64,000 nucleotides of DNA from Terriglobales bacterium (lineage in GTDB: Bacteria > Acidobacteriota > Terriglobia > Terriglobales > SCQP01): contig JBOGKX010000052.1 in assembly GCA_050746125.1 (NCBI GenBank), positions 9,548-73,547 of the forward strand, in the 5' to 3' direction. Each line of letters starts with the position of its first letter. Within the stretch, counting starts at the first letter, position 1. Shown here one piece after another: positions 8,209 to 48,219 of the stretch. The notes below the pieces were generated by a model that was given only the letters and a program-made list of their open reading frames with translations, had not been told where the DNA came from and ran no database searches. The position numbers were made by a program, and so were the translations under genes.

Positions 8209-10487
8209 GCGCCGCTGACGCTGCAATCAGCCGCCGCCATTTTCTCGAAGGCGTGTTTTCCGCCGGCGCCTTCGTGCTCTGCGCTGGCGCGTTGCCGCGC
8301 GGCGCCTGGGCGGAAATCGTCAATCCCGCCCTGCCGCTGGCGACCACCGCGTTTCATCCCGGCGTCTGGCTCGGCATCGAGCCCGATGGCACGGTGCTAA
8401 TCGTCGCCGCTCGTTCCGAGATGGGCACCGGCATTCGTACCGCCCTGCCGCGCGTCGTCGCCGACGAGCTTGAGGCCGATTGGCGCCGCGTCCGCATCGT
8501 GCAAGCCATCGGCGACGCCAAATACGGCTCGCAAGATACCGACGGCTCGCACTCCATCCGCAGCTTCTTCGAGGTCATGCGCACCGCTGGCGCCACCGCG
8601 CGCACGATGCTGACCCAAGCCGCCGCCCAACGCTGGGGCGTGTCCGCGGAGGAATGTGTAGCCCGCTTTCACGCCGTCCATCGCGGCGCTGCTACCGCCG
8701 GCGGGGATCCCGCCTTGGGATATGGCGAGCTGGCCGCCGCCGCCGCGCGGCTGCCCGTGCCGTCGCGCGAGTCGCTGCGCTTCAAGCCGCGCTCGGCATG
8801 GCGCTACATTGGCAAGGATGCCGCCGCCTACGATCTCGAGGCCATCTGCACCGGTGACGCCGGGTATGGCATGGACGCGCACCTGCCCGGCATGCTATAC
8901 GCCGCCGTCGCCCATCCGCCCGTGCTCGGCGGCAAGGTAGCTTCGTTCGATCCCAAGCCGGCGCTGGCCGTGGCCGGCGTGCGCCGCGTGGTGCCGCTGC
9001 CGCCTTTGCAATTTCCCGCCGCGATGCAGCCGCTCGGCGGCGTGGCGGTGGTTGCCGACAACACCTGGGCTGCCTTTGAGGGCCGGCGCAAGCTGCATGT
9101 CGAATGGAACGATGGCCCTAATGCCAGCTACGACTCCGCCGCTTATCGGCAGCAACTCGAAGCCACCGCCCGCCAGCCCGGCAAGGTCGCGCGCGACAAC
9201 GGCAACGCCTTGGCCGAGCTTGCCGACGGCGGTCGTATCGTCGAAGCCGCCTACTACGCCCCCCATCTGGCCCACGCTTCCATGGAGCCGCCCGTCGCCC
9301 TCGCTGACGTTCGCGACGGCCGCGTCGAGGCTTGGGTGCCGACCCAGGATCCGCAAGGGGCGCAGGAGAGTATTGCCAAGGCGGTCGGCGTGCCCAAGGA
9401 AAACGTCGTTTGCCACGTGCCCTTGCTGGGTGGCGCCTTTGGCCGTAAATCGATGCACGACTTCGCGGTGGAGGCGGCCCTGCTTTCGCAATCCGCCGGC
9501 CGTCCGGTGAAGGTCGTCTGGTCGCGCGAGGACGACATTCGCTTCGATTACTACCACTCCGTTGCCGCCATGGTTTTGCAAGCCAAGCTGGGCGCCAACG
9601 GCATGCCCAGCGCCTGGCTCGGTCGCAGCGTGTTTCCGCCCATCGGTTCGATCTTCAGCGCCGGCGAAGAATATGGCAGTGGCGGCGAGTTGGGCATGGG
9701 CTTCACCGATGTGCCATTCGCCATCCCTAATGTTCGAGTCGAGAACGGTCCCGCCCGCGCCCATCTGCGCATTGGCTGGCTGCGCTCCGTGGCCAATATC
9801 TACCATGCCTTCGCGGTGCAGAGCTTCGCCTGTGAATTGGCCCACGCCGCCGGCCGCGATCCGCTTGAATATCTCCTCGCCCTGCTCGGCCCCGATCGCA
9901 TCGTCGATCCCGCCCTCTTGAGCGTCGCTTACCGCCCCTCTTCGCGCGCCGAGAAAAACCCCTACCCGATCGATATCGCCCGCTATCGCCGCGTCGTCGA
10001 GTTGGCCGCCGAACGGGCCGGCTGGAGCCGGTTCCGGTCCGCGCAGGGGCGCGGCATCGGCCTCGCCGTCCACCGCAGTTTCTTAACCTATGTCGCCACC
10101 GTGGTTCAGGTGCACCTCGACCCACATGGCCATGTGCGCATCGACCGCGTGGATACTGCCCTCGATGCCGGCACCGTGGTTAACCCCATCAACGTCCGCG
10201 CCCAGTTCGAAGGAGCCGCGGTCTTTGGCGCCAGCCTCGCCTTATATGGGGAGATCACCGCGAAGAATGGCGCCGTTGTGCAGTCGAATTTCAACGACTA
10301 TCCCGTCTGCCGCATGAACCAGGCGCCAGCCGAGGTTCACGTGCACATCGTGCCCAGCGAGGCGCCGCCCGCCGGCGTCGGCGAGCCGGGCGTGCCGCCG
10401 TTCGCCCCTGCGCTCTGCAACGCCGTCTTCGCCGCCACCGGCCGGCGCGTGCGCGCCCTGCCGCTCGTCCATGCCGGTTTGGCGTAA
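8205..10487 (+). CDS. molybdopterin-binding large subunit (IorB-like), Tat signal
   Basis: The ATG overlaps the small-subunit stop as ATGA. The N-terminus [29 protein letters not shown] is a twin-arginine signal. The 760-aa body matches the aldehyde oxidase/xanthine dehydrogenase Mo-binding fold pattern. Confidence 0.9.
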
Positions 10488-26325: not shown

Positions 26326-27096
26326 TCAACGCGCTGCTTGCGACCCAAGCTGCTCGACCCCGGCATCCAAGTGGGAGGCCGCAGGGCGGTCGGCAACGAT
26401 CCAGACGTCCTGCCCGTGGCGCAAAAAGCTGGCCGGCACCTCGGGGCCAATCGGCCCTTCCAGCGTGCGATGCAAAATCTCCGCCTTTCGTTCGCCATTC
26501 ACCAGCAAGACCAAGCGGCGGGCTTGGAGCAAAGTGGCGATGCCGGTGGTGACGCCAAAGGCGGGAACTTCCTCTCCCGGCCAATATTCCTCATTGGCTT
26601 CGCGCGTGACCGGGCTCAAGGGAACGACCCGAGTATGCGAGTCCGGCGGCGAGCCGGGTTCATTGAAGCCGATATGACCGGTTAGACCCAAGCCCAACAA
26701 TTGCAAGTCGCAGCCGCCCCAGGCGGCCAATTGCGCCTCATAGGCGGCGCAGGCGGCTGCGATGCCCTCCGGCTGCGAAGGCATTCGCAGCACGCGATCG
26801 GCGGCGATGCCGGCGGGGCCCAGGAAATGCTCCCGCAGCCAGTGGAAAAAGCTGATCGGCCGGTCTCCGGCGCCGAGATACTCATCCAGCATGGCGACGC
26901 GGGCACGGGAGAAGTTCACGGCGCCGTGCCGCTGTTGCGCCACCAAATGCTCATAAACGGGCACCGGCGTGTTGCCGGTGGGCAGGCCGAGCACGGCATC
27001 GGGTTTGGAACGCAGCGCTTCCGCCACGAGGGCGCCGGCGGCGGCGCCGAAGTCGGCCGGATCGACCACGCGCAGGTGCAGGTTAGGGGAGGGCAT
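26326..27096 (-). CDS. glucosamine-6-phosphate deaminase / 6-phosphogluconolactonase family protein (NagB-like)
   Basis: 256 aa from MPSPNLHLRVV. It has the family motifs LGLPTGNTPVPVYE and LLGLGLTGHIGFNEPGS. Confidence 0.8.
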   Translation of the reverse strand: MPSPNLHLRVVDPADFGAAAGALVAEALRSKPDAVLGLPTGNTPVPVYEHLVAQQRHGAVNFSRARVAMLDEYLGAGDRPISFFHWLREHFLGPAGIAADRVLRMPSQPEGIAAACAAYEAQLAAWGGCDLQLLGLGLTGHIGFNEPGSPPDSHTRVVPLSPVTREANEEYWPGEEVPAFGVTTGIATLLQARRLVLLVNGERKAEILHRTLEGPIGPEVPASFLRHGQDVWIVADRPAASHLDAGVEQLGSQAAR

Positions 27097-27169
27097 CGCG
27101 GTCACTTTAATATAACAATCCGCGGCGGCATGGGTGTGAGCGGCGGTGTGATTATGGTGGAAAGTTCGC

Positions 27170-27199
27170 TTGCATTGCGCGTCGGTCTGAGGGTATATT
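27170..27199 (+). promoter_or_regulatory. candidate sigma-70 promoter for the riboswitch leader
   Basis: TTGCAT (27170-27175), an 18-nt spacer, then TATATT (27194-27199), about 55 nt upstream of riboswitch P1. Confidence 0.4.
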
Positions 27200-27254
27200 C
27201 GTGGGGACAATTGAATACGGATCTGAGTCGTTTTGCATGACGATTCGGATCCTC

Positions 27255-27390
27255 CCTGAATCATCCAGAGTGGCTGAGGGATCAGGCCCGAAGAAGCCAC
27301 GGCAACCGGTTTCCGGCGCGGCAGCAAAGCCGCAAGGAAACGTCGAGGTGCCAATTCCTGCCCAGATAGCGCTGGGGAAGATGAGATAGG
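27255..27390 (+). promoter_or_regulatory. SAM-I (S-box) riboswitch
   Basis: The conserved core reads in order: UCAUCCAGAGUGGCUGAGGGAUCAGGCCCGAAGAAGCCACGGCAACC ... GGUGCCAAUUCCUGCCCAGA ... GAAGAUGAGA. The P1 arms are UCAUC and GAUGA. Confidence 0.85.
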
Positions 27391-27416
27391 GGCTGAGCGA
27401 GCGACTTCAGCCATCC

Positions 27417-27443
27417 AACCCTCTTCTTCCGGAGAGGGTTTTT
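27417..27443 (+). terminator. intrinsic terminator of the riboswitch expression platform
   Basis: AACCCUCU (27417-27424) pairs with AGAGGGUU (27433-27440) and the sequence runs into UUUUU. GGAAGAUGAG (27376-27385) can pair 9/10 with CUCUUCUUCC (27421-27430) as an antiterminator. Confidence 0.7.
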
Positions 27444-27515
27444 CATTGCACCCTCGAAAACCTTGGGCGGAAATTCCTGAGCGCGGCCGGAACGCCGCGA
27501 GGAGAAGACCGCGAA

Positions 27516-28763
27516 ATGTCGTTTGAACTGGGGTTGCGATGTCGCGATTGCGGCCGGGAGTTCGCTTCCGGCCCCTTGTCAGGCTGCTCGGAGTGCTTTG
27601 CGCCGCTCGAAGTCGTCTATGACTGGCGGGCCATTGCCGGCGCGGTGCGGCGGGAAGAACTGGCGGCGCGGCCGGCCAACATGTGGCGCTACCGCGAGAT
27701 GCTGCCCTTGCACGTGCAAGGCGCGCTGCCGCCGATCGGCGGTACGCCCCTGGTGCCGGCGCCTCGGCTGGCGAGAGCCTTGGGGGCGCGGCAGCTTTAC
27801 ATCAAAAACGACGCCGTGAACTATCCCACCCTCTCGTTCAAGGACCGGGTGGTGGCGGTGGCGCTGCGCAAGGCGCGGGAGTTCGGTTTCGAGGTGGTGG
27901 CGTGCTCCTCGACCGGCAACTTGGCCAATGCGGTGGCAGCGCAAGCGGCGGCCTTGGGTCTAGCGGCCTACGTCTTCGTGCCTGCCGGCCTGGAGGCAGC
28001 CAAGGTGGCCAATACGCTGGTCTACGGCGCGCAAATGGTCCAAGTGGCTGGCAATTACGATCACGTCAACCGCCTCTGCACCGAAATTGCGCAGGCATTC
28101 CCGTGGGGCATCGTGAACGTAAACCTGCGGCCCTACTATGCCGAAGGTTCCAAAACCGTGGGCTATGAAATTGCGGAAGCGCTGCGCTGGCGGCTGCCGG
28201 CGGCGGTGGTCTGCCCCATGGCGGGCGGCTCGCTGATCGGCAAAATCGCCAAGGCGTTCTCGGAACTGCGCCAGTTGGGCTGGGCGGATGGTGAGGCCAG
28301 CTTCTTCGGCGCCCAGGCGAGCGGCTGCTCCCCGATCAGCGCGGCGGTGAAGGCGGGGCGCCAGGAAATCGAGCCGCAGCGGCCCAATACCATCGCCCGC
28401 TCCCTGGCCATTGGCAATCCCGCCGACGGATACTATGCCGCTCGCCTCATTCGCGAGAGCGGCGGCTGGGCCGAAGACGCCAGCGACACCGAGATCGTGG
28501 CCGGCATGCGCTTGTTGGCCGAAACCGAGGGCATCTTCGCGGAGACTGCCGGCGGCGTAACGGTGGCCTGCGCGCAAAAGCTGCTCGCCGGAGGTCGCAT
28601 CGACCCCAGCCAGCCGCTCGTACTGGTCATTACCGGCAACGGCCTCAAGACGCTCGACGCCGTTGCGCTCGACCGCGAGGCGGTTCCCACCATCGCGCCG
28701 CGATTGTCGGAGTTTCAGGCCTTCGTGGCCGCCGGGGCGCCGGCGGAGCCGCTAGCCGTTTAA
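27516..28763 (+). CDS. threonine synthase-family PLP enzyme with N-terminal Cys4 zinc ribbon (MetM-like candidate)
   Basis: CRDCG..17..CSEC sits at the N-terminus. The PLP-lysine motif is TLSFKDR, with a glycine-rich loop AGGSLIG. GGAG lies about 10 nt upstream of the ATG. Confidence 0.85.
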   Translation: MSFELGLRCRDCGREFASGPLSGCSECFAPLEVVYDWRAIAGAVRREELAARPANMWRYREMLPLHVQGALPPIGGTPLVPAPRLARALGARQLYIKNDAVNYPTLSFKDRVVAVALRKAREFGFEVVACSSTGNLANAVAAQAAALGLAAYVFVPAGLEAAKVANTLVYGAQMVQVAGNYDHVNRLCTEIAQAFPWGIVNVNLRPYYAEGSKTVGYEIAEALRWRLPAAVVCPMAGGSLIGKIAKAFSELRQLGWADGEASFFGAQASGCSPISAAVKAGRQEIEPQRPNTIARSLAIGNPADGYYAARLIRESGGWAEDASDTEIVAGMRLLAETEGIFAETAGGVTVACAQKLLAGGRIDPSQPLVLVITGNGLKTLDAVALDREAVPTIAPRLSEFQAFVAAGAPAEPLAV

Positions 28764-28771
28764 GCACAGCC

Positions 28772-29050
28772 ATGTACATTTTGCGCATTCCCGCTCCCTT
28801 GCAACGCTTCACCGGCGGCGCCGATCAACTCCGCTGTCAAGGCGAAAACTTGTCTGCCTTGATCGAGGAACTCAGCCGCCGCTACCCCGAACTGCGCGAG
28901 CGCATCTGCGAAGCCGACGGCCGCCCGCGCCGCTTCTTCAACGTGTATGTAAACGACGAGGACATCCGCTTCTTGGGCGGAGGCGAATACCGTTTCCGCG
29001 AGGGCGACGACGTCTTGATCTTGCCGTCTATCGCTGGCGGCCGAGCCTAG
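28772..29050 (+). CDS. MoaD/ThiS-family sulfur-carrier protein (MetO/CysO-like candidate)
   Basis: 92 aa, starting 8 nt after the thrC-like stop. It has a beta-grasp-like pattern and ends LILPSIAGGRA, a Gly-Gly followed by two extra residues. Confidence 0.8.
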   Translation: MYILRIPAPLQRFTGGADQLRCQGENLSALIEELSRRYPELRERICEADGRPRRFFNVYVNDEDIRFLGGGEYRFREGDDVLILPSIAGGRA

Positions 29051-29064
29051 AGCCGCGTTTTTCA

Positions 29065-29093
29065 TTGACGGTAAGACGCTCATTTGCTACGTT
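29065..29093 (+). promoter_or_regulatory. candidate sigma-70 promoter for the pdaD operon
   Basis: TTGACG (29065-29070), a 17-nt spacer, then TACGTT (29088-29093), in the 99-nt gap after the carrier gene. Confidence 0.35.
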
Positions 29094-29149
29094 TCAGGAT
29101 TGCCCGTCCGCAGTGTGCCCGGTCGCCGCGACGCGCGAGATTGCCTGAA

Positions 29150-29695
29150 ATGATCGCCAAGCAGATTTTCCTCTCCAAAGGGGTGGGGAAGCATCGCGAG
29201 CGCCTGACCAGCTTCGAGTTGGCGCTGCGCGACGCCGGCATCGCTGCCTGCAACCTAGTGCGGGTGTCGAGCATTTTTCCGCCGCGCTGCAAATTGGTCC
29301 CCCGGTCGGCCGGCTTGAAGCTGCTCAGTCCGGGAGAAGTGGTCTTCGCCGTCTTAAGCGAGAACTCGACGCGCGAGCCGCATCGCCTGATCGCCGCTTC
29401 GATTGGCCTGGCGCTGCCCGCCGACCGCGACACGTACGGTTATCTTTCCGAGCATCATTCATTCGGTGAGACCGAACAGCAGGCGGGCGAGTACGCCGAG
29501 GAGCTGGCGGCGGAGATGCTGGCTACGACGCTCAACGTGGATTTCGACCCCGACCGTTCCTGGGACGAAAAGAAAGAGATCTATCGCATTTCGAACAAGA
29601 TCGTCCGCACCACCAACATCACGCAATCGGCGGTGGGCGACAAGCGCGGGCTATGGACGACGGTCTTGGGTTGCGCGATTCTTATCGGCGAATAG
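29150..29695 (+). CDS. pdaD: pyruvoyl-dependent arginine decarboxylase
   Basis: 181 aa. The self-cleavage site context [11 protein letters not shown] and the overall pattern ([21 protein letters not shown]) match PvlArgDC. Confidence 0.85.
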
Positions 29696-48144: not shown

Positions 48145-48219
48145 TGGTGAGGCGGCTGGGACTCGAACCCAGAACCCTTGCCTTAAAAGGGCAATGCTCT
48201 ACCATTGAGCTACCGCCTC
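48145..48219 (-). tRNA. tRNA-Lys (anticodon UUU), CCA encoded
   Basis: GAGGCGGTAGCTCAATGGTAGAGCATTGCCCTTTTAAGGCAAGGGTTCTGGGTTCGAGTCCCAGCCGCCTCACCA folds as a cloverleaf with a 7-bp acceptor stem, GCTC/GAGC D stem, TTGCC/GGCAA anticodon stem, loop CTTTTAA and CTGGG/CCCAG T stem. Confidence 0.95.

Follow-up and report, generated by a model that had tools for sequence, protein, structure and literature searches.

Why should a gene that automatic annotation would call thrC, for threonine synthase, lie behind a riboswitch for S-adenosylmethionine (SAM)? The question is raised by a locus at positions 27170 to 29695 of a 64-kb stretch of contig JBOGKX010000052.1, from an acidobacterium of the order Terriglobales (assembly GCA_050746125.1), which we refer to as the window. 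Here a SAM-I riboswitch precedes the gene for a 415-aa pyridoxal phosphate (PLP) enzyme and, directly after it, the gene for a 92-aa sulfur carrier. Our answer is that the riboswitch very probably turns off transcription of a two-gene operon for a homocysteine synthase of the MetM/MetO type. A preliminary description of the locus, made by reading the letters, had already proposed a carrier-dependent homocysteine synthase, and phylogeny, residue signature and genomic context all favour that predicted function. The features on which the argument draws are given below in window coordinates.

27258-27387, + strand: SAM-I (S-box) aptamer with a 31-nt insertion in P3 (RF00162, 73.8 bits)
27376-27385, + strand: 3′ strand of P1, which is also the 5′ strand of the antiterminator (9 of 10 pairs with 27421-27430)
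27391-27412, + strand: 7-bp hairpin in the interval between aptamer and terminator, inside the antiterminator loop (minimum-energy folds; the related locus L001 has an equivalent)
27417-27443, + strand: intrinsic terminator with its stem at 27417-27440 and its U-run at 27439-27443; 27421-27430, the alternative partner of the P1 3′ strand, belongs to its 5′ arm and loop (hairpin scan and folding)
27500-27504, + strand: Shine-Dalgarno-like AGGAG, 11 nt 5′ of the ATG (read from the sequence)
27516-28763, + strand: metM-like gene for a 415-aa PLP enzyme of the threonine synthase family, a predicted homocysteine synthase (domain hits, phylogeny, signature and context)
28772-29050, + strand: metO-like gene for a 92-aa sulfur carrier of the ThiS/MoaD fold (PF02597, 50.1 bits)

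The aptamer and its expression platform

The whole window was scanned against 4227 Rfam families. RF00162 (SAM-I) is the sole riboswitch match, at 27258-27387 on the + strand, scoring 73.8 bits (gathering score 44.4, E = 2.1e-15) with an alignment that spans the full model (positions 1-108 of 108); the S-box core that the preliminary description had placed at 27255-27390 is therefore a significant one. Downstream of it, the terminator hairpin has 10 pairs and a UUCC loop and runs into the U-run. The 3′ strand of P1, GGAAGAUGAG (27376-27385), can pair at 9 of 10 positions with 27430-27421, the remaining position being a U.U mismatch (27382/27424). Both the terminator and this alternative pairing had been read from the sequence before, and the recomputed pairing and folds agree with that reading.

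Left unconstrained, the nascent transcript (27250-27431) reaches its minimum energy with the antiterminator helix formed and P1 open. The full leader (27250-27450), by comparison, favours a closed P1 together with the 27391-27412 hairpin and the terminator at -82.0 kcal/mol, versus -75.9 kcal/mol when the antiterminator is forced. As modelled, the leader has the layout of a classical S-box off-switch, with mutually exclusive terminator and antiterminator and a P1 3′ strand common to both; that it binds SAM and terminates transcription in vivo is a prediction. The S-box leaders of met genes in Bacillota have the same aptamer, the same terminator/antiterminator logic and the same sharing of the P1 3′ strand. 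Unlike them, the leader in the window controls metM-metO rather than metI, metC, metE or metK, carries a 31-nt insertion in P3 and belongs to a member of the Acidobacteriota.

A threonine synthase family member apart from ThrC

The 415-aa enzyme belongs, judged by its sequence, to the threonine synthase family and is no orthodox ThrC. It matches the PALP domain (PF00291) with 232.6 bits, and the metO-like open reading frame (ORF), which begins 8 nt past its stop codon, matches PF02597; the earlier reading of a ThrC-family gene and a 92-aa beta-grasp gene spaced 8 nt apart was correct in both families and coordinates. With canonical ThrC (TIGR00260; structures 1UIM, 2ZSJ, 6CGQ and 2D1F) the enzyme shares the fold-type II PLP domain, the catalytic lysine of the SFKDR motif, the STGN loop and probably the substrate, and with some ThrCs an N-terminal zinc ribbon. 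K109, within SFKDR, is invariant across the clade described below, and the Schiff-base lysine and the S84-T85-G86-N87 loop are kept. It differs from canonical ThrC in lying outside a thr operon, in its pairing with a sulfur carrier, in standing under SAM control and in a set of clade-specific replacements.

Annotation models do not capture these differences. The NCBIfam equivalog for thrC, TIGR00260, is passed by the window enzyme with 258.8 bits against a cutoff of 167.1 and by MetM-like proteins in general at 259 to 271 bits, and so fails to separate the two paralogs, while NF006050, the NCBIfam threonine synthase model, is narrowly missed (275.7 versus 303). Among the 240 clusters listed by two protein searches, all named homologues are called "threonine synthase", as had been anticipated for automatic pipelines. 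The closest relatives among the matches listed are proteins of Terriglobales and other Acidobacteriota, the best of them 98% identical; the exact 415-aa protein is not on record in public assemblies.

A closer comparison is offered by a Terriglobales metagenome-assembled genome (MAG), L001, whose orthologue is 72% identical to the window enzyme and which also carries a ThrC in a thr operon. Solved ThrC structures match the window enzyme at 171 to 189 bits, and from residue 52 onward only; the same structures match the thr-operon ThrC of L001 at 269 to 273 bits. The N-terminal C9xxC12...C24xxC27 ribbon, which the preliminary description had singled out as a distinguishing extra, was rejected as a paralog marker: the thr-operon ThrC of L001 carries one too, and NF006050 spans it.

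Phylogeny, which had been proposed as a check, sets the enzyme apart. A neighbour-joining tree (66 sequences, 404 columns, 100 bootstraps) was built from 50%-identity representatives of an exhaustive HMMER search, four solved ThrCs and two ThrCs defined by genome context. The window enzyme falls in a clade of 33 members (96% bootstrap), actinobacterial proteins included, and splits of 99-100% separate this clade from the canonical ThrCs. The window enzyme is 53% identical (394 bits) to the member from Nonomuraea and 35-40% identical to ThrCs, and two paralogs inside one genome share a mere 33-35%. As paralogs within a genome are so much further apart than clade members across phyla, the split must be old and the cross-phylum relationship orthologous; on this sequence evidence, MetM is an ancient paralog of threonine synthase.

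The separation is also visible residue by residue. In an alignment of 62 clade members with 6 ThrCs, numbered after the Thermus thermophilus enzyme, G64V, M65V, T88L, N157R, R160Y, Q164S and N188G/S occur in all 62 clade members and in none of the 6 ThrCs; G58L, A90N, G187A, N191L and R242A are further clade-fixed substitutions. The window enzyme thus lacks the full set of residues that ThrCs keep invariant around the substrate and phosphate site, and it does not group with characterised ThrCs. In the T. thermophilus ThrC structures, T88, S155, R160 and N188 reportedly contact the substrate phosphate.

Five relatives (L001, L002, L071, L075 and Nonomuraea) encode both a metM-like paralog and a canonical thrC. 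In L001 the order is SAM-I aptamer (80.5 bits), enzyme, carrier and a pyruvoyl-dependent arginine decarboxylase gene, with an aspartate kinase-thrC-thrB-hom operon 5 kb away on the opposite strand. The chromosome of Nonomuraea gerenzanensis has riboswitch (68.7 bits), enzyme and carrier at one site and thrC-thrB-rho elsewhere, and in L002 thrB and aspartate kinase, along with part of a thrC, are found 5 kb downstream. In two Nitrospirota loci, both kinds of gene stand in one string: L071 (5986-12953) and L075 (166-7379) have a metM-like gene, one or two MetO-like genes, a canonical thrC (TIGR00260, 320-328 bits), the phosphoglycerate-mutase-like homoserine kinase gene HomK (TIGR02535, 567 bits), aspartate kinase and a LeuA/CimA-like gene; a riboswitch is absent from these two strings.

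Conservation of the unit and its neighbours

How widely the unit is kept was surveyed with two clade-specific peptide patterns in one genome per species. More than 600 stretches matched, and the best 80 (52-66% identical) were analysed. They span about 10 phyla, coming from Acidobacteriota, Planctomycetota, Verrucomicrobiota, Kiritimatiellae, Nitrospirota, Nitrospinota, Cyanobacteria, Desulfobacterota, Methylomirabilota, Binatota and a Heliomicrobium. A covariance model made from four aptamers located a SAM-I aptamer 70-250 nt upstream on the coding strand in 55 of the 80 loci, one locus having no upstream sequence; when the 11 weakest of the 55 were re-scored with Rfam, all were confirmed at 65-77 bits. 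In 60 aptamers, 97.9% of the cells in P1, P2, P2b and the base of P3 are paired, with double changes at 10 pairs, as against about 40% (38-55%) in control alignments whose 3′ partners had been shifted by 1-3 columns. P4 is present in the Rfam alignment.

The expression platform recurs as well. A simple terminator follows in 48 of 59 related leaders, and at least 23 of the 48 have a CCUCUU-type 5′ arm complementary to the 3′ strand of P1; terminators of this kind recur across phyla. In two actinobacterial loci the aptamer ends 8-11 nt from the start codon, which suggests translational control there.

The carrier gene is equally persistent: with four other loci and the window added to the 80, 76 of the 85 have a same-strand MetO-like gene downstream, and among the 9 exceptions several are truncated contigs. 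In one Micromonosporaceae MAG (L004, 5878-7278) a SAM-I aptamer and a metM-like gene are present and a carrier ORF is absent within 800 nt downstream; the carrier gene of this MAG must lie elsewhere, or a carrier such as CysO must be shared.

The best solved relative of the window carrier is Mycobacterium tuberculosis CysO (3dwg_C, E = 1.5e-17). The carrier ends in ...SIAGG-RA, two residues past the Gly-Gly, so these two must be trimmed to expose it and trimming by a JAB protease is expected, consistent with the role in MetO maturation that GapMind 2026 gives to Mec. About half of the relatives' carriers end exactly in GG, and many acidobacterial ones have one or two extra residues or longer tails. 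Several Acidobacteriaceae MetO-like ORFs have Cys-rich tails past the Gly-Gly (for example ...AGGSCSCCSYCGREECVCG; variants in L019, L024, L033, L034, L038 and L039), and several Desulfobacterota-like genomes have an extra C-terminal domain of ~80 aa fused at the same place (variants in L050, L053, L054, L062 and L078).

Flanking ORFs were clustered and the cluster representatives annotated. A ThiF-rhodanese protein of the MoeZ type is a neighbour in 12 loci, a Prok-JAB protein of the Mec type in 4, a class-V aminotransferase (cysteine desulfurase) in 4, aspartate kinase in 10 and homoserine kinase in 6; CysM/CysK-like cysteine synthases also recur. The order in L053, L054 and L062 is enzyme, carrier, ThiF, CysM-like protein and JAB, and that in Planctomycetota is enzyme, carrier, a further gene, ThiF/rhodanese and cysteine desulfurase. 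In Planctomycetota and one Acidobacteriota locus, from the set L055 (5980-10795), L060 (5755-10134), L052 and L044, ThiF-rhodanese and class-V aminotransferase genes directly follow metM-metO, a placement that suggests cysteine as the carrier's sulfur source; in L044 the riboswitch lies 5′ of ThiF and the desulfurase, which are themselves upstream of metM.

Homoserine kinase follows the carrier in two Acidobacteriota SAM-riboswitch operons of the form metM-metO-thrB. In L013 (7329-8563) thrB begins 6 nt past metO, and in L025 (7261-8574) one ORF of 437 aa covers both the MetO-like carrier and the homoserine kinase ThrB, with aspartate kinase next to it on the 3′ side; this fusion could be an assembly error. 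In Nitrospirota, thrC, HomK and aspartate kinase lie directly 3′ of metO. The recurrent neighbours therefore link the family with a sulfur relay based on protein thiocarboxylates and also with O-phosphohomoserine supply.

Three further features flank the unit in the window.

27170-27199, + strand: candidate promoter, with -35-like TTGCAT (27170-27175), an 18-nt spacer and -10-like TATATT (27194-27199), suggested by eye
27206-27218, + strand: leader 13-mer GACAATTGAATAC, identical in L001 at 9740-9752
29144-29695, + strand: neighbouring gene for pyruvoyl-dependent arginine decarboxylase (PF01862, 196 bits)

A consensus promoter scan returned zero promoter-like sites, the candidate at 27170-27199 being too weak for it; L001 has a TTGACC/TATAGT pair similarly placed 5′ of its aptamer. 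The 13-mer GACAATTGAATAC contains the palindrome CAATTG and stands, in the window as in L001, 3′ of the -35/-10-like pair and 5′ of the aptamer, in surroundings that have diverged between the two. It may mark the transcription start region or an operator.

The arginine decarboxylase gene follows metO in L001 (11717-12262) as in the window, and was rejected as a member of the conserved unit since the adjacency occurs in these two loci only. Scanning and shuffling revealed no convincing terminator in the 93-nt gap between metO and this gene. An 11-mer, GTTTTTCATTG, occurs twice, at the U-run of the leader terminator (27438-27448) and just past the metO stop codon (29056-29066), and the hairpin 5′ of the later copy does not outdo shuffled sequence (z-score 0.36). 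The decarboxylase gene is for this reason possibly co-transcribed, which would bring the first step of polyamine synthesis under the SAM off-switch too. Elsewhere in the window, a tRNA gene lies at 48148-48219 on the - strand (RF00005, 77.2 bits), with an anticodon loop, CUUUUAA, consistent with tRNA-Lys(UUU).

Proposed function, alternatives and meaning

Starting from what is observed, namely the aptamer with its competing helices, the families of the two genes, an enzyme phylogenetically apart from ThrC and a conserved unit with its neighbours, we propose the following mechanism. When SAM is scarce, the P1 3′ strand (27376-27385) would pair with 27421-27430 and block the terminator, and RNA polymerase would read into metM-metO. 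When SAM is abundant, P1 would be locked, the hairpin at 27417-27440 would form with its U-run, and transcription would halt before the genes. MetM would use O-phosphohomoserine, the product of homoserine kinase and also the intermediate of ThrC, in a PLP-dependent gamma-replacement, with the C-terminal thiocarboxylate of MetO as the sulfur nucleophile; the product would be homocysteine, the direct precursor of methionine and SAM. The GG-RA pro-form of MetO would be trimmed by a JAB/Mec-type protease and the trimmed carrier adenylated and sulfurated by a ThiF-rhodanese protein of the MoeZ type, both maturation enzymes presumably being encoded outside the window.

Related routes are known in other bacteria. 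The HcyS/HcyD/HcyF/MetY system of Wolinella succinogenes, from the work of Krishnamoorthy and Begley, reportedly makes homocysteine via a ThiS-like protein thiocarboxylate on a protease-matured carrier, and is said to employ a fold-type I O-acetylhomoserine sulfhydrylase (MetY) with acylated homoserine. The predicted system in the window would share with it the homocysteine product, the thiocarboxylate carrier and maturation by a protease, and would differ in using a ThrC paralog and O-phosphohomoserine in place of MetY and acylated homoserine. With CysM/CysO/Mec/MoeZ of M. tuberculosis the likeness would lie in the protein-thiocarboxylate donor, the PLP intermediate derived from a phosphorylated amino acid and the kinds of activating and trimming enzymes. 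The differences from that pathway are an enzyme of the ThrC rather than the CysK/CysM family and, as predicted, O-phosphohomoserine rather than O-phosphoserine, gamma- rather than beta-replacement, and homocysteine as product. As for how far the MetM/MetO pathway extends, the abstract of its original description reportedly places it in other bacteria and in archaea as well.

That original system belongs to Streptomyces albulus, in which the threonine synthase homologue MetM and the sulfur carrier MetO, with Mec and MoeZ as helpers, convert O-phosphohomoserine to homocysteine (Hasebe et al. 2024, Appl Environ Microbiol 90:e01247-24, as described in papers citing it). The preliminary description had named this precedent, and it is real, being cited both in PMC12172450 and in the GapMind 2026 preprint. 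PMC12172450 reports a SAM riboswitch upstream of S. albulus metM as well as homologues in cyanobacteria; GapMind 2026 includes MetM, MetO, Mec and MoeZ and states that MetM is often misannotated as threonine synthase. The window resembles the S. albulus system in its succession of SAM riboswitch, ThrC homologue and ThiS/MoaD-type carrier gene; in relatives, moreover, predicted Mec (JAB) and MoeZ (ThiF-rhodanese) helpers adjoin the pair and genes for O-phosphohomoserine supply are linked to it. Unlike S. albulus, the host is an acidobacterium of the Terriglobales and the carrier has a GG-RA tail, and the expression platform is a transcription terminator where the actinobacterial loci examined suggest translational control. 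Each feature of a MetM/MetO system that we tested by sequence, namely the PLP family, the distinct lineage, the adjacent carrier and the upstream SAM riboswitch, is present in the window.

Several observations weigh against this assignment. The main caution comes from Microcystis, whose 'ThrC' is the one non-actinobacterial homologue studied and has ambiguous biochemistry: it is reported to have threonine synthase and deaminase activities and did not act as a clear MetM (PMC12172450). The link to the characterised MetM runs via proxies from Nonomuraea and Micromonosporaceae, which have the same locus layout and 52-53% identity; a tblastn search of a plasmid collection returned Nonomuraea only, and a protein search seeded with the Nonomuraea enzyme gave, among the matches listed, only Nonomuraea and other Streptosporangiaceae. 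Resolution within the clade is poor in a tree that is neighbour-joining only, the grouping of Acidobacteria with Actinobacteria having 45% support. In the window itself, Mec/JAB, MoeZ/ThiF, thrB, thrC, metX and metY were looked for and none was found, so that the remaining pathway, Mec, MoeZ, thrB and thrC among it, would have to lie outside these 64 kb. The substrate, the product and the processing of the carrier in this acidobacterium are matters that we infer.

The regulatory side has its own counterweights. Taken by itself, the terminator pattern is no commoner than chance would give (1 found versus 2.3 expected in shuffles of 27000-29400), and its significance comes from its position and its conservation in related leaders. 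In 24 of the 80 loci Rfam finds no SAM-I aptamer. Riboswitches are absent from the loci of Nitrospirota, Nitrospinota and Cyanobacteria, the last in agreement with the Microcystis report (PMC12172450). A search of the 24 loci for other classes of SAM riboswitch gave only one borderline SAM-II match, in an Acidobacteriota MAG (L057, 4737-4810; RF00521, 37.5 bits versus 36), where a short-chain dehydrogenase gene stands between it and the metM-like gene downstream.

Carrier-dependent sulfur transfer with another substrate or product, be it O-phosphoserine to cysteine, an acyl-homoserine or a sulfur-containing secondary metabolite, is in our view unlikely. The relation of the carrier to CysO, of the cysteine pathway, points in that direction, as do the CysM-like genes and JAB proteases that share clusters in several phyla, but separate CysM-like genes are found wherever cysteine synthesis is co-encoded and the enzyme itself is not of the CysK/CysM family: with the cysKM/cysM hidden Markov model the window protein is unlisted and the L001 orthologue reaches 47 bits against a cutoff of 344, versus 290-400 bits for true CysM-like neighbours. 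Cysteate synthase, another ThrC homologue, does use O-phosphoserine, and its model TIGR03844 matches weakly, at 48.9 bits against a cutoff of 324.9. The element preceding the enzyme in 55 of 80 loci is a SAM riboswitch and not a cysteine-responsive one, homoserine kinase (thrB or HomK) is a recurrent operon partner, and the members stand in primary-metabolism contexts in about 10 phyla.

It is very unlikely that homocysteine is made from O-phosphohomoserine and free sulfide, with the adjacent carrier serving another purpose or acting as an auxiliary sulfur source. Genes that would serve carrier activation (ThiF-rhodanese, JAB and cysteine desulfurase) lie in the same clusters as the pair, and the S. 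albulus enzyme is described in GapMind 2026, in its account of that enzyme, as dependent on MetO thiocarboxylate. Free sulfide would fit the sulfite reductase and siroheme genes that adjoin the pair in L002 and L003 and the 9 of 85 loci, together with the Micromonosporaceae locus, in which an adjacent carrier gene is absent; against these stand the 76 loci that have one, and the contig ends among the exceptions.

An orthodox threonine synthase under SAM control, balancing for example the threonine and methionine branches at O-phosphohomoserine, has hardly any probability left, for although the TIGR00260 cutoff is passed, the best solved relatives are ThrCs and the Microcystis homologue is reported to have threonine synthase activity in vitro (PMC12172450), the tree places the enzyme apart from the canonical ThrCs, ThrC positions 88, 157, 160, 164 and 187-191 are replaced clade-wide, a sulfur-carrier gene is its partner in most loci, relatives have a canonical thrC as well (twice within one operon), and a SAM off-switch would starve threonine synthesis at the very time that methionine is in good supply, an arrangement without regulatory logic.

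The homocysteine synthase reading has consequences for annotation. Because a SAM off-switch before a "thrC" makes sense only for methionine synthesis, a riboswitch can reveal such a misannotation. The preliminary description had implied that the route was uncharacterised outside actinobacteria; homologues had in fact been reported in cyanobacteria (PMC12172450) and the pathway is in GapMind, so the novelty is smaller than implied. The pathway was published in 2024, and the value of the present analysis lies in confirmation, in extension to another phylum and in a residue and context signature, with no new mechanism. The survey shows the breadth of the riboswitch-metM-metO unit, and the signature separates MetM-like proteins from ThrC.

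A broader proposal is one that we take seriously and stop just short of favouring: that the MetM/MetO route, and not the acyl-homoserine routes, is a principal source of homocysteine across much of Acidobacteriota, Planctomycetota, Verrucomicrobiota, Nitrospirota/Nitrospinota and other environmental phyla, often wired to SAM-I riboswitches and to dedicated copies of homoserine kinase. If so, the route would be systematically hidden because TIGR00260 names every member 'threonine synthase', and the clade-wide signature (T88L, N157R, R160Y, Q164S, N188G and others) would be a simple discriminator for re-annotation. Metabolic reconstruction of soil and sediment bacteria needs correct calls in the methionine pathway, and a genome with such an operon would be credited with two threonine synthases and might seem to have no route to homocysteine.

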